64,000 bases of DNA from Microcoleaceae cyanobacterium (GTDB lineage Bacteria > Cyanobacteriota > Cyanobacteriia > Cyanobacteriales > Microcoleaceae). Positions 59,305-64,000 of the stretch are shown in pieces; within the stretch, counting starts at the first letter, position 1; each line of letters begins with the position of its first letter. Location: NCBI GenBank assembly GCA_051652765.1, contig JBOFUV010000052.1, positions 62,270 through 126,269 on the forward strand, written 5' to 3'. The position numbers were made by a program, and so were the translations under genes. The notes beneath the pieces are model-generated. The model was not told the DNA's origin. It worked only from the letters and a program-made list of their open reading frames with translations, and ran no database searches.

Positions 59305-59778
59305 ATGCTGTTCAACCTAACAATTTTCTGGTTAATCGCTGGTGTCCTACTTTGTCTGCTCGAACTGTTTGTGCCAACGGCTTTTGTTGAGTTCATGATG
59401 GGGTTGAGTGCATTTGTGGTAGCCGGGATTTCCCTGATCCTACCCTCTCCCCATGTGCAAGTTGCCCTGTGGCTAGTGCTATCCGTGGGGTCAGTTGTAG
59501 CAATGCGACGATTTATGCCCCATCGTTCAGTCAGAATGATTGAGGATGCCAAAGAGGCAGAAACGTTAACAGAGATTATCCCAGGTCAAGCGGGTCGAGT
59601 ACTGTGTGAAGGAATTTCCTGGCGAGCACGGTTGGACGAAGGAATGGGTCAGGCGATCGCGCCTCATCAACCTGTGATTATCGTCGGGCGGGAGGGGAAT
59701 ACCTTGATCATTGTGCCCGAAAAATTGCTAGGTTCCCGGGCTGAATTGGAGCGTTGGAACCCGGAGCATCAGGAGTAG
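59305..59778 (+). CDS. NfeD-family membrane protein
   Basis: WLIAGVLLCLLELFVP; OB-fold GRVLCEGISWRA...GREGNTLII; adjacent to an SPFH gene. Confidence 0.9.
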   Translation: MLFNLTIFWLIAGVLLCLLELFVPTAFVEFMMGLSAFVVAGISLILPSPHVQVALWLVLSVGSVVAMRRFMPHRSVRMIEDAKEAETLTEIIPGQAGRVLCEGISWRARLDEGMGQAIAPHQPVIIVGREGNTLIIVPEKLLGSRAELERWNPEHQE

Positions 59779-59909
59779 TTAGCCCAAGCTGCGATTAAGA
59801 ACCGCGTTTTGCTTTAACTGTTTACTTTAACTGTTTGCTTTAACTGTATTGATTGGTTTTGTTCAAAACCTTGTTCACACTATCTCCAGCACCTAGAGAG
59901 GTCATTCAA

Positions 59910-60851
59910 ATGGGACAGTTTTTTCTACTACTTTTTCTTGCCCTTGGCGGTTCAGCTTTAGCCGGGGGTGTCAAGATTGTGAATCAGGGAGATGAAGCAT
60001 TGGTTGAGACCCTGGGAAAGTACAATGGCCGCAAACTCAAGCCCGGTCTCAACTTCGTGATTCCGTTTATTGATCGCCTTGCGTACAAGCAAACGATTCG
60101 AGAACAGGTTCTCGATATTCCCCCACAGCAATGTATCACCCGCGACAACGTTTCGATCAGCGTTGATGCCATCGTGTATTGGCGGATCATGGATTTAGAA
60201 AAAGCCTGTTACAAGGTTGCAAATCTCGTTCCAGCGATGGAGAACTTAGTTCGCACCCAAATTCGGTCTGAGATGGGGCAACTCGAATTGGATCAAACCT
60301 TCACTGCTCGCACTGAAGTCAACGAACTGCTGCTGCGGGAACTGGATATTGCCACTGATCCCTGGGGTGTAAAAGTCACGCGGGTCGAACTACGAGACAT
60401 TTGCCCCGCCAAAGCAGTCATGGATGCGATGGAGTTGCAGATGTCAGCAGAACGGAAGAAACGGGCTGCAATTCTAAACTCTGAAGGAGAACGGGAGTCA
60501 GCGATTAACTCTGCTCGGGGTAGAGCGGAGGCTCAAGTTCTAGAGGCTGAAGCCAATCAAAAAGCGTTGATCCTAAAAGCGCAAGCCGAACGCCAAACTC
60601 AAGTGCTAAAAGCCCATGCCACAGCAGAAGCGTTGCAGATTGTGGCAAAGATTCTTGGCAGTGATGCTAGAGCCCAGGAAGCCTTGCAGTTTTTGATGGC
60701 TCAGCACTATATTGACATGGGCACAACCATTGGCAAGAGTGACAGTAGTAAGATTCTGTTCATGGACCCCCGGAGTATTCCAGCAACACTAGAAGGAATG
60801 AAGGCCATTGTCGGTGACTCAACTCTAAATACCCTAAACAAAGAGAGCTAA
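59910..60851 (+). CDS. SPFH/band-7 (stomatin-like) protein
   Basis: [49 protein letters not shown] at 59910. Confidence 0.93.
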
Positions 60852-60926: not shown

Positions 60927-62540
60927 GTGTCCGACGAAACGAAACCTTCTCGTTCCTTAGCCCGAATCGCCGGGATTGTGGCGATCGCGACGCTACTCAG
61001 CAAAATATTTGGGCTTGTGCGTCAACAAGCCATCGCAGCAGCTTTTGGAGTTGGCCCAGCGATTGATGCCTATAGCTACGCTTATGTCATCCCAGGATTT
61101 CTCCTGGTCTTGCTGGGGGGCATTAATGGGCCATTCCATAGCGCGATTGTCAGTACTTTAGCAAAGCGTGACGCGAAAGATGCAGCCCCTTTGGTTGAGA
61201 CGATCACAACCTTAGTGGGTGGCATTTTGCTCTTGGCCAGTATTCTCATTGTTATTTTTGCCGATCCATTGACCAGTTTGGTTGCCCCAGGACTGAATCA
61301 AACTCCAGAGGGACTTGAGATTCGGGCGATCGCGGTTCAACAGTTGAAAATCATGGCTCCAATGGCTTTACTGGCGGGGCTCATTGGGATTGGATTTGGG
61401 ACACTGAATGCTGGAGATATGTATTGGCTGCCCTCTATTAGTCCTTTGTTTTCTAGCGTTGTTTTGGTAGGGAGTTTGGGCGTTTTGGCTTTGTCCTTGG
61501 GAGAGCAGATTACGGCCTCTGACTATGCGATGTTGGGCGGGTTAGTCCTAGCATGGGGAACTGTAGGGGGTGCCGTTTTACAATGGCTCGTTCAGATTCC
61601 AGCCATGTGGAGAGCCGGATTGGGGACATTGCGCTTGCGGTTTAATTTCAAGCAACCTGGCGTTCAGGAGGTGTTAAAAGTCATGATTCCAGCAACGTTT
61701 TCCTCTGGAATGTTGCAAATTAATGTTTATACGGATCTATTTTTCGCCTCTTACATTCCTCAGGCCGCAGCCGCCATGGGCTATTCAGGATTGTTAATTC
61801 AAACGCCCTTGGGGATTATTTCCAACGTTATTCTAGTCCCGTTTCTACCTGTTTTTTCTCGCTTAAGTGCCCCAGAAAACTGGCCCGAACTGAAGGGGCG
61901 GGTTCGTCAAGCCTTGATGTTGACGGCAATTACCATGTTGCCTTTAGGCAGTTTGATGATTGCTCTATCTTTGCCGATTGTGCGAGTCGTTTACGAACGC
62001 TATGCTTTTGATCGCGCTGCGTCCCAGTTCGTTGCCTCCCTGTTGGTTGCCTATGGCACAGGCATGTTTGTTTACTTGGGACGAGATGTGTTGGTGCGAG
62101 TGTTTTATGCTTTGGGAGACGCAGAAACCCCCTTTCGAGTCAGTATTTTCAATATTTTCCTCAATGCCGTGCTCGATTTTCTGCTGGTTAAACGCTTTGG
62201 GGCCCCTGGCTTGGTTCTGGCAACGGTTGGAGTCAATGTATTTTCAATGGTGATTTTATTGAGACTACTCCATATTCGATTGGACGGTTTGCCCTGGCAA
62301 GACTGGTGTCTTCCCTTCCTGGGGTTGAGCTTGGGCAGTATTGTGGCTGGAGTGGCTGCCTATGGAACAGCTTGGGGATTGCGAATGGTTTGGGGAACTG
62401 AAGGATTTTGGATTCTGGTGATCGAACTTGGAATGGCCAGCCTGGTCGGTTTGGGAATCTTTGCCGCCTTCACTGCCAAAATGGGCTTGCCCGAAGTTGA
62501 GTTGCTAACGGCGAAGGTGAAACAACGATTTGGACGATAA
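60927..62540 (+). CDS. murJ: Lipid II flippase MurJ
   Basis: ATLLSKIFGLVRQ...AAFG, GGINGPFHSA, multi-TM, RVFYALGD. Confidence 0.94.
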   Translation: MSDETKPSRSLARIAGIVAIATLLSKIFGLVRQQAIAAAFGVGPAIDAYSYAYVIPGFLLVLLGGINGPFHSAIVSTLAKRDAKDAAPLVETITTLVGGILLLASILIVIFADPLTSLVAPGLNQTPEGLEIRAIAVQQLKIMAPMALLAGLIGIGFGTLNAGDMYWLPSISPLFSSVVLVGSLGVLALSLGEQITASDYAMLGGLVLAWGTVGGAVLQWLVQIPAMWRAGLGTLRLRFNFKQPGVQEVLKVMIPATFSSGMLQINVYTDLFFASYIPQAAAAMGYSGLLIQTPLGIISNVILVPFLPVFSRLSAPENWPELKGRVRQALMLTAITMLPLGSLMIALSLPIVRVVYERYAFDRAASQFVASLLVAYGTGMFVYLGRDVLVRVFYALGDAETPFRVSIFNIFLNAVLDFLLVKRFGAPGLVLATVGVNVFSMVILLRLLHIRLDGLPWQDWCLPFLGLSLGSIVAGVAAYGTAWGLRMVWGTEGFWILVIELGMASLVGLGIFAAFTAKMGLPEVELLTAKVKQRFGR

Positions 62541-62638
62541 CCCTTCAGCTTTAGTTTGGAGTCATTGGCGGCTTTTCTCTACAGAATTACCAACTCAAGA
62601 CATTAAGCTGTGTACTTAGTTTCGTACGACTACTGACA

Positions 62639-62753
62639 ATCAAGACGGGTTTGGTATAAGATCAATGCGGGTTTAGTTTGAGATCAACGGGCAAATGCTC
62701 TGAGATCAACTTGATCTGAGTGTGAGATCAACGCGGGTTTGATGAGCAATCAA
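62639..62753. repeat. 22-bp-periodic direct-repeat array (ATCAA core x6)
   Basis: ATCAA at 62639, 62661, 62683, 62705, 62727, 62749; three units also share CGGGTTT. Confidence 0.8.
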
Positions 62754-62819
62754 TCTGAACTTAAACGTAACCCGCCACAGATTTATTCAATAATCAAGCT
62801 AGAAATAGCTTCTTCTATC

Positions 62820-62882
62820 ATAGTGCTTGAGCCGAATCAGATCACGCACCTAATCCAGTAGCTTTTTCGGGCGTTGTTCCAT
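62820..62882 (-). pseudogene. intI: Integron integrase (IntI) N-terminal remnant with an in-frame stop, truncated after about 21 codons
   Basis: Revcomp reads ATG GAA CAA CGC CCG AAA AAG CTA CTG GAT TAG GTG CGT GAT CTG ATT CGG CTC AAG CAC TAT = MEQRPKKLLD*VRDLIRLKHY, matching the IntI N-terminal pattern KLLDQVR..IR..HYS. Confidence 0.8.
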
Positions 62883-62888
62883 CTGGGG

Positions 62889-63110
62889 TTATACAGAAAA
62901 TTTCAAGGTAATGCTCCGAATAAATCGATGCTAGGCCAAACATTGCTGTGTTTCATCGGAGAATATACGGAAAGTTTCGGGATAATCCTCAAATTTAGGA
63001 TGTATACCCAGAAAGTTTCAGTACAATTGCAGTATCAGTGTGGATTATATGGAAAGTTTCAGGGTAATCATCCCAAAAGTGTTGGTTATGCAGAAAATTT
63101 CAACATAATA
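62889..63110. repeat. Five quasi-palindromic repeats, consensus TTAT-x3-GAAA(A/G)TTTC-x4-TAAT; last four exactly 41 bp apart
   Basis: GAAA[AG]TTTC cores at 62896, 62970, 63011, 63052, 63093. Confidence 0.85.
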
Positions 63111-63207
63111 ACTAGTTATTCTGCTTAATTCACAGGTTGTGGCGGTATTTTAAAACGTGTCAGTTGGCATCAAAATTAGAGTAATGTGAAGTCATTCAGT
63201 CGGTGTG

Positions 63208-63226
63208 CTGAAGTAATCTGTTAGCA
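63208..63226 (+). other. Candidate attI recombination site (core G/TTAGCA)
   Basis: GTTAGCA at 63220-63226, between the intI 5' end and the first cassette ORF, starting 46 bp before the ATG. Confidence 0.5.
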
Positions 63227-63265
63227 TTCATCATTAACTCCCGGCGATCAGACAATGTTTTATCT

Positions 63266-63754
63266 ATGTTGACTCTTCATCAAGCTACAAGCAGTCAGTT
63301 ATCTGCACTCCTTGAGCAACCCGAACACTCTGACATAGATGGGTTGCTACTTCCTAAGAGTGAAGAGGTTGCTCCTAGGTTCTGGATAGAGTTTGTTAAT
63401 GACCAATTAAATCAAGACCCCAAAAACAGTTTTTGGTGGTCTCCTCGGTCGATCGTAGTCGATCGGTTAATGGTTGGGATGATCGGATTTAAAAGTCCTC
63501 CAGACAGTAATGGCTCGGTTGAAATTGGATATGGAATAGTACCTTCTCAACAAGGACAAGGATTTGCAACTCAAGCCGTGGATTTGTTGGTTAAAGAGGG
63601 ATTTTTAAAGGCTGAAATTCAAATGATTGTGGCTTATACGGTGCCAATGAATTCAGCATCTGGGAGAGTCTTGGAGAAGAATCAATTTATGAGAGACGGG
63701 AGTAGAGTTGATCCAGAGGATGGTGAAGTTTGGGTTTGGCGAAGAGTGCGGTAA
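63266..63754 (+). CDS. GNAT (RimJ/RimL-like) acetyltransferase, putative integron cassette gene
   Basis: VGMIGF, VEIGYGI, QQGQGFAT acetyl-CoA motif, NSASGRVLEKNQF. Confidence 0.9.
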   Translation: MLTLHQATSSQLSALLEQPEHSDIDGLLLPKSEEVAPRFWIEFVNDQLNQDPKNSFWWSPRSIVVDRLMVGMIGFKSPPDSNGSVEIGYGIVPSQQGQGFATQAVDLLVKEGFLKAEIQMIVAYTVPMNSASGRVLEKNQFMRDGSRVDPEDGEVWVWRRVR

Positions 63755-63780
63755 AGAAACCATGCGAATCAGCGATCGCA

Positions 63781-63869
63781 GGATAACAACCCACTTGCAC
63801 GCCGACCGTATTGAGTTGGTTGGTTGAGACCGAAAGTTGACTAGCGGCGGGTAAAGCGGAACGTTATGC
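63781..63869 (+). mobile_element. attC-like site (89 bp)
   Basis: R'' GGATAAC at 63781, R' GTTATGC at 63863; inner arms CCACTT[G]CAC[G]CCG[A]CCG vs CGGCGGGTAAAGCGG; begins 26 bp after the GNAT stop. Confidence 0.75.
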
Positions 63870-64000
63870 CGCTTAGTCCTTGATTGAGATGTAGCGAAAA
63901 GTTATCTGTGAGTGGCGATAGTGGGATAGTTGTAAATTCTCGGTTGGGGGACGGTTGAGAGATTGTTAGTGAGATGCGATATTTATAGAAAATCGAGGGC

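Follow-up and report, generated by a model that had tools for sequence, protein, structure and literature searches.

An integron remnant beside murJ in a Microcoleaceae cyanobacterium, a probable member of a dispersed family of integrase-less attI platforms

Fragments of integrons can be mobilised by MITEs or by insertion sequences (IS). Clusters of attC sites with no integrase nearby (CALINs) were surveyed by Cury et al. (2016, PMC4889954); half of the CALINs occur in genomes without IntI, and intI pseudogenes lay near 15 of 279 CALINs when searched for with an IntI C-terminal profile. Nemergut et al. (2008, PMC2426708) describe pseudogenes of intI, genomes with several intI, and pseudo-integrons that are duplicated, and a study on Xanthomonas (10.1101/2025.06.18.660453) reports CALINs at several conserved loci. 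Integrons and attC sites of cyanobacteria are also known (PMC4889954, PMC8352920 and PMC8618304), as are cassettes with a partial attI (PMC12901181) and cassette capture during transformation (PMC12614218). A literature search whose scope excluded most subscription papers found no account of many dispersed attI platforms with 5' stubs of intI; the supplementary per-genome tables of PMC4889954 and PMC2426708 may list such cyanobacteria.

The DNA analyzed here (the window) is a stretch of 64,000 nucleotides from contig JBOFUV010000052.1 (C52; positions 62,270 to 126,269) of the Microcoleaceae assembly GCA_051652765.1 (G000), a draft genome of 5.04 Mb in 158 contigs. Its 3,231 HIP1 sites, like the cyanobacterial origin of those close GNAT relatives that have named records, point to a cyanobacterial host. 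The right edge of the window is the end of the contig. The integron layout proposed in the initial annotation was borne out by an intI 5' stub, a repeat leader, an attI, a GNAT cassette and an attC (Table 1), and the feature is a true integron remnant with near certainty. The array was also suspected to run beyond the window edge and, indeed, the last stretch of the contig resembles the start of a second cassette; its continuation was sought in genome G000 and none was found. Both the 22-bp tandem array and the multi-copy nature of the unit formed by stub, leader and attI, hereafter the platform, had been overlooked. An ordinary pair of NfeD and SPFH/Band 7 genes is located upstream of murJ, at 59305-60851.

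Table 1. Layout of the integron remnant and its neighbours, in window positions.
Feature	Position	Strand	Remarks
murJ	60927..62540	+	core gene adjoining the platform, outside the element; TIGR01695, 406 bits
22-bp tandem array	62632..62753	+	5 units and a degenerate left edge
72-bp non-intI segment linking array to stub	62748..62819	+	common to 12 stub-bearing copies
intI 5' stub, codons 1-21, in-frame stop at codon 11	62820..62882	-	
Leader, five imperfect palindromic direct repeats	62883..63114	+	232 bp
attI simple site	63103..63121	+	L box 63103-63109, 5-bp spacer, R box 63115-63121 (GTTATTC)
First gene cassette, about 750 bp	63115..63863	+	Halotia wernerae copy
GNAT acetyltransferase, RimJ/RimL-like, 162 aa	63266..63754	+	Pfam Acetyltransf_3, E 1e-16
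attC, 89 bp	63781..63869	+	covariance model match; next predicted crossover G63863|TT
Second cassette start, interrupted by contig end	63863..64000	+	carries the cassette 5' motif

The IntI-like N-terminus seen at first inspection is genuine. It reads MEQRPKKLLD*VRDLIRLKHY on the minus strand from 62882, and matches at 76% over 25 residues the N-terminus of the full-length IntI of a congener (genome G002, contig C133). This gene (L029), the only full-length intI of the congener, is interrupted by one in-frame stop within the catalytic domain; an intact relative of its product scores 470 bits on TIGR02249. DNA homology to intI stops at 62820, after 63 nt, indicating that the window copy is a deletion stub. 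Of 18 stub copies, 2 carry the in-frame stop, which is incidental; the stub was made by deletion and not by the stop codon. Genome G000 contains 18 such stubs, 12 of which are cut at the same base (codon 21) and joined to the core and the 22-bp array, the others ending at codons about 20, 24, 33, 54, 103 (internal deletion) and 117. Variation among the stubs falls mainly on third codon positions (12, vs 5 and 7 at the others). The idea that the stub is kept for a Pc promoter was rejected, since at least 4 platforms in G000 and 3 in G002 have no stub.

The divergent leader is repeat-rich, as first described, but shorter than the estimated 340 bp or so. Its repeats begin at 62889, 62963, 63004, 63045 and 63086 (spacing 74/41/41/41). 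In relatives, full-length intI genes have comparable repeat leaders in front of them, and the repeats are putative accessory IntI-binding sites. A sigma-70 scan of the leader gave 1 match against 2.3 expected, and no full match to a LexA box consensus was detected there. In many platform copies, a TATAAT-like hexamer overlaps the L box.

When 18 platform copies were aligned, their common sequence stopped at AACTA|GTT, which corresponds to 63115 in the window. The predicted crossover is G63115|TT, and the locus in all likelihood has the attI of a complete integron. The GTTAGCA core at 63220, originally taken as the attI candidate, was excluded: it lies 105 bp away inside the cassette, it is also present inside the copy of this cassette in Halotia wernerae, and the similarity among platform copies ends at 63115. 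Pairing between the R' of attI and the R'' of the first attC was then compared over the 16 platforms whose first attC lies at most 7 kb away, leaving out four platforms without an attC at that distance and one that was unparsed. The R' of the window matches its R'' and, over the whole set, 57 of 64 variable R' bases were complementary to the R'' of the attC concerned, against a mean of 40.3 in permutations (0/10,000 as high).

The GNAT gene predicted as cargo was recovered in full; relatives at 82-93% were found in cyanobacteria at 8 of 12 confirmed loci, and PADLOC gave no match for it. Along its full extent, the interval 63115-63866 shares 89.8% identity with a cassette of Halotia wernerae that is sited between two attC sites; the first base of that cassette behind its upstream attC corresponds to 63115. 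The palindrome reported after the GNAT stop is an attC by our own covariance model, for which 52 other attC sites were used and the window site and its orthologues left out: it scores 58.2 bits (E 9.4e-11) and is the sole match below E 0.8 in the 64-kb window. Taken alone, this site folds no better than shuffled sequences (z -0.08). By analogy with other integrons, its bottom strand would be the recombinogenic one. A CALIN is defined by at least two attC without intI; the window displays one attC and a second cassette start before the contig ends, and sister loci such as those on contigs C17 and C74 are CALINs, with 5 attC each.

Similar sites flank other open reading frames as well. The total for G000 is about 80-90 attC: an iterated profile detected 91 at E<0.05 (and none at that level in the reversed genome), and the covariance model 79, compared with 18 in G002, 13 in G022, 7 in G029 and 0 in a second congener, G001 (150 candidates scored per genome). 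In an alignment of sites taken from G000 and other genomes, which covered 52 of the 55 candidates, 94% of cells were paired, with 26-47% in slid controls, and 91 two-sided changes were counted vs 27.5 after shuffling. The predicted R''/L''/L'/R' pairing, with extrahelical bases, is that of the attC of a complete integron. The bottom strand did not fold better than the top one (bottom 19/62, top 42/62, by DNA minimum free energy). On the same contig, 45 of the 91 sites lie at most 12 kb downstream of an attI or stub, and many others are near contig ends. A cassette 5' motif follows 28 of 63 attC sites, as against 3% of random sites, and may be relevant to how cassettes are made. This conserved 50-bp motif (63863-63920 in the window) looks like the right half of attC.

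The initial annotation pictured a single chromosomal array beside murJ that had lost its own integrase. The loss was supported but the single array is too narrow a picture, as the unit is present about 20 times in G000. We counted 21 attI platforms on 19 contigs (20 by pattern and one from the alignment), including three within one 220-kb contig; an extra attI was recognized by eye on C71. The 22-bp arrays also number 21 (from 22 rows, one of which repeated another on the opposite strand). On C49, C63, C109, C134 and C145, the array has other intergenic repeats beside it and neither stub nor leader. The left edges of the arrays have no common phase, and the array was rejected as a row of secondary IntI sites, given that a left edge at G|TT in about 3 of 21 arrays is what chance would produce. 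Platforms are flanked by unrelated genes (mutL, argH/crr6, folK, radC, lplA, a B12 radical SAM gene and an M48 peptidase), and very probably form a real dispersed family.

The copies are 81-95% identical to one another and display patchwork recombination: distances for core, stub and leader are uncorrelated (Mantel r 0.18, -0.03 and -0.01), and 214 of 406 site pairs are incompatible. Each attI has its own IntI-type cassette junction. Only one alike pair was found among the 21 first cassettes, and the 68 cassette intervals contain no near-copies apart from an ORF-less cassette, indicating that the platforms did not spread together with their cargo.

The cargo comprises GNAT, SDR and glyoxalase genes, toxin-antitoxin pairs, restriction systems and Lamassu (Pfam scan of 118 out of 189 ORFs). 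On C34, a single first cassette of 3.7 kb consists of a complete Lamassu system (LmuA, LmuC, LmuB; L061:5555-9070), with a perfect R'/R'' match. Restriction-modification genes lie within first cassettes of 4.6 and 6.1 kb (L059:4883-8691 and L062:6785-10248); in the former, a type IIG/ISP gene is in two parts with a PIN toxin-antitoxin pair between them. The ORF-less cassette is about 217 bp long; judged by its internal motif, there are 14 copies of it (on C10, C21, C22, C30, C34, C50, C67, C74, C82, C116 and C136, among others), and it is the first cassette at two attI. It has been struck by IS insertions at one TA, and is possibly a promoter or spacer cassette.

In the five relatives examined, the platform was absent behind murJ (5/5). 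Congener G002 has nine platform loci, namely the full-length intI with its stop, five stubs and three leader-only copies, and their flanks map to other places in G000. Congener G001 has one eroded leader. At three loci compared with both congeners, the left and right flanks were on different contigs and no clean empty site was found. Besides the two congeners, 300 further genomes of the order were searched for the 22-bp pattern and none had it; G002 gave one weak match to the array. Searches for the array-core pattern in metagenome contigs, for the attI pattern in viral contigs and for the platform in plasmids returned no match. A 151-bp contig from the public run X7 ends loose with the same codon-21 junction.

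Stub platforms are also found outside the genus. A profile of the IntI N-terminus (E<=0.001, weak matches included) matched 104 of 201 genomes of the order. G000 had the most matches (at least 17, with 31 of 49 candidates scored), followed by 17 of the 200 others with 4-7. The catalytic half was missing in 12 of 23 hand-picked genomes. Among 20 regions surrounding N-terminal matches in seven such genomes, which include one intact and one frameshifted full-length intI, 13 had an attI-like core behind the start codon and 14 had attC matches. In two cassette regions, L129 of G090 and 4.45-4.50 Mb on contig C1 of G016, several stub platforms or full intI stand in tandem.

Altogether, we favor a reading, with a probability of roughly 0.65, in which the murJ locus is a member of a dispersed and recombining family of integrase-less platforms (intI 5' stub, leader and attI) loaded by an IntI from elsewhere. 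An ancestral integron would have lost intI from codon 22 on, and the leftover platform would have been copied to new loci, the murJ locus included. The copying routes were probably mixed, with IS5-family ends in some copies and recombination or illegitimate joints in others. Each attI would then have received its own cassettes by standard attC x attI recombination, a mode of entry suggested by the junctions and by established integron biology. The IntI could be the product of a former resident gene, of an unassembled gene or of a gene on incoming DNA; once it is absent, the arrays would be frozen reservoirs of defence, toxin-antitoxin and detoxification genes, still exchangeable by homologous recombination. 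That loading took place in trans and after dispersal is favored by slightly better than even odds.

The order of these events is where an alternative has to be weighed. Each locus could be a separately acquired complete integron that used its own IntI and whose intI was later cut from the 3' side, gene conversion or transformation spreading one junction (array, core and stub) with no need for activity in trans. The copies have recombined and the stub variation is biased to third positions, so that the shared cut may be a graft onto older, separate integrons, and loading after dispersal is not forced. Two leader types and their mosaics carry the same cut, five other cut points occur in G000, the platforms of G202, G022 and G029 differ within each genome in leader and cut point, and several left joints abut the stop codon of the neighbouring gene. 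However, about 20 independent arrivals would be needed in one lineage, while the congener G001 has 0 attC and one eroded leader. Every graft would also have to remove about 900 bp although only one side offers homology, and an extra left flank is common, in part or whole, to six copies, three of them with an intact IS5 end. Separate acquisition is considered unlikely, with a probability of about a quarter.

A second alternative, compatible with the favored reading, is that an intact intI exists in the organism but is missing from the draft, the platforms being a network active today. Screening the whole genome by tblastn with IntI, as the initial annotation had suggested, returned N-terminal stubs only; the surviving intI sequence of G000 consists of the first 12-118 codons, the longest match reaching residue 118. 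TIGR02249 gave no match above cut-off, a profile of the IntI C-terminus nothing at E<=1e-12, and the seven recombinases of Pfam PF00589 in G000 were rejected as IntI, none having IntI features. In place of the intact intI that adjoins attI in a complete integron, the murJ locus has the 21-codon stub only. A gene could have escaped on contig C68, whose first base lies in a leader, some 10 bp beyond the start codon, leaving the intI side unassembled; moreover, the assembly has no short contigs (the shortest is 1,614 bp) and G002 retains its full-length intI with a single stop. Yet no intI sequence was detected at the contig ends of G000, and C101 ends in an array that could supply the left side of C68. 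Several attI cores (C97, C138 and C116) are mutated, and the stub-only state recurs in four closed or two-contig genomes: in G022, G029, G090 and G168 the N-terminal matches number 5, 5, 5 and 3, and the catalytic half is absent. Nine public sequencing runs had shares of 0.05-0.07 (RNA runs 0/9); four runs compared with the G002 intI gave short pieces only, mostly below 90%, which are uninformative on a hidden intI in the source organism. An intact resident gene is rather improbable.

Equally doubtful is the proposal that the platform is a non-autonomous transposon derived from IS5, by which every copy, that at murJ included, was moved before its ends eroded. At C45, C67 and C101, the left end is an inverted repeat of IS5 type that follows a TA; a portion of the flank bearing it is left at C50, C97 and C22. 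At C50 the opposite end follows the last attC, which is joined at G|TT to an IS5 left end. Elsewhere there are also short IS5 elements with internal deletions. Nevertheless, IS5 ends on both sides with a TA duplication were seen in no copy (C45, C67, C101 and C50 have one end only), and most copies have neither; at the window copy, an IS end was looked for to the left of the 22-bp array and none was present. Furthermore, the platforms of G002 have neither array nor flank, and a full transposase of the family was not found with a 40-residue query.

Movement of the platform as a cassette, through attC x GTT recombination within intI, was rejected, as it accounts for one clear (G002, C63) and one possible (G090) case among about 30 breakpoints. 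At the clear one (L083:1275-1360), an attC is joined at G|TT to antisense intI at codon 70, as would be expected of attC recombination with a secondary site inside intI. Finally, strain mixture or misassembly as the source of the multiplicity is very improbable: the genome is a draft in which many arrays run into contig ends, but contamination is 0.18%, the copies are 5-19% divergent, each with flanks and cargo of its own, and the pattern is repeated in G002 and in closed genomes, the junction being found in an unrelated public run as well.

The reading of dispersed platforms loaded from elsewhere can be extended, more tentatively and at somewhat less than even odds. The stub-leader-attI unit may act as a non-autonomous element, sowing a network of landing pads for cassettes throughout the genome; cassettes would be loaded and swapped at about 20 loci by an IntI in trans or visiting, or by homologous recombination with incoming DNA, and many "orphan" cyanobacterial CALINs may have arisen likewise. 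The shared leader and the 14-copy ORF-less cassette would be the anchors for homologous recombination, with whole anti-phage systems among the swapped cargo. The finding bears on the origin of cassette arrays without integrase: intI 5' stubs with an intact attI occur at about 20 loci of one genome and at several loci of unrelated cyanobacteria, which suggests an integron organization in which attI sites are numerous and the integrase is either shared or missing. If this is true, many orphan CALINs of cyanobacteria are platforms whose 5' stubs escape C-terminal integrase profiles. Whole Lamassu and restriction systems as first cassettes make the platforms candidate plug-in points for phage defence in cyanobacteria.

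Compared with known systems, the platforms resemble CALINs, as described by Cury et al. (2016, PMC4889954), in having attC clusters with no integrase nearby. They differ in keeping an attI, a leader and an intI 5' stub, which the C-terminal profile described there could not detect. With the pseudo-integrons and multiple integrons described in PMC2426708 and 10.1101/2025.06.18.660453, they have in common frequent decay of the integrase, more than one intI per genome and some intragenomic duplication. Those systems involve recognisable integrase genes in few copies, in Xanthomonas at conserved loci, whereas here 63-bp stubs with a shared junction occur at about 20 lineage-specific loci and recombine. 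SALINs and attG sites (Loot et al., 10.1101/2022.09.11.507474) also concern dispersed cassettes, and two junctions (C50, and C63 of G002) look like attC-GTT; the window cassette, however, stands in a true attI with leader and stub and not at a bare genomic GWT site of the kind described there.

Some platforms lie next to IS5-type ends, as do integron fragments mobilised by MITEs or IS, but paired ends with a target duplication occur in no copy and the window copy has no IS end. The likeness to a sedentary chromosomal integron is in the divergent intI start, the attI with L and R boxes and direct repeats, the 70-131-bp attC, and the cargo of GNAT, toxin-antitoxin, restriction and defence genes. 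Unlike such an integron, which occupies one fixed locus, this genome has about 21 attI with short arrays at positions not common even to a congener, and an integrase gene is missing from both the locus and the assembly. Dispersed stub-attI platforms would be a new version of integrase-less integron arrays.
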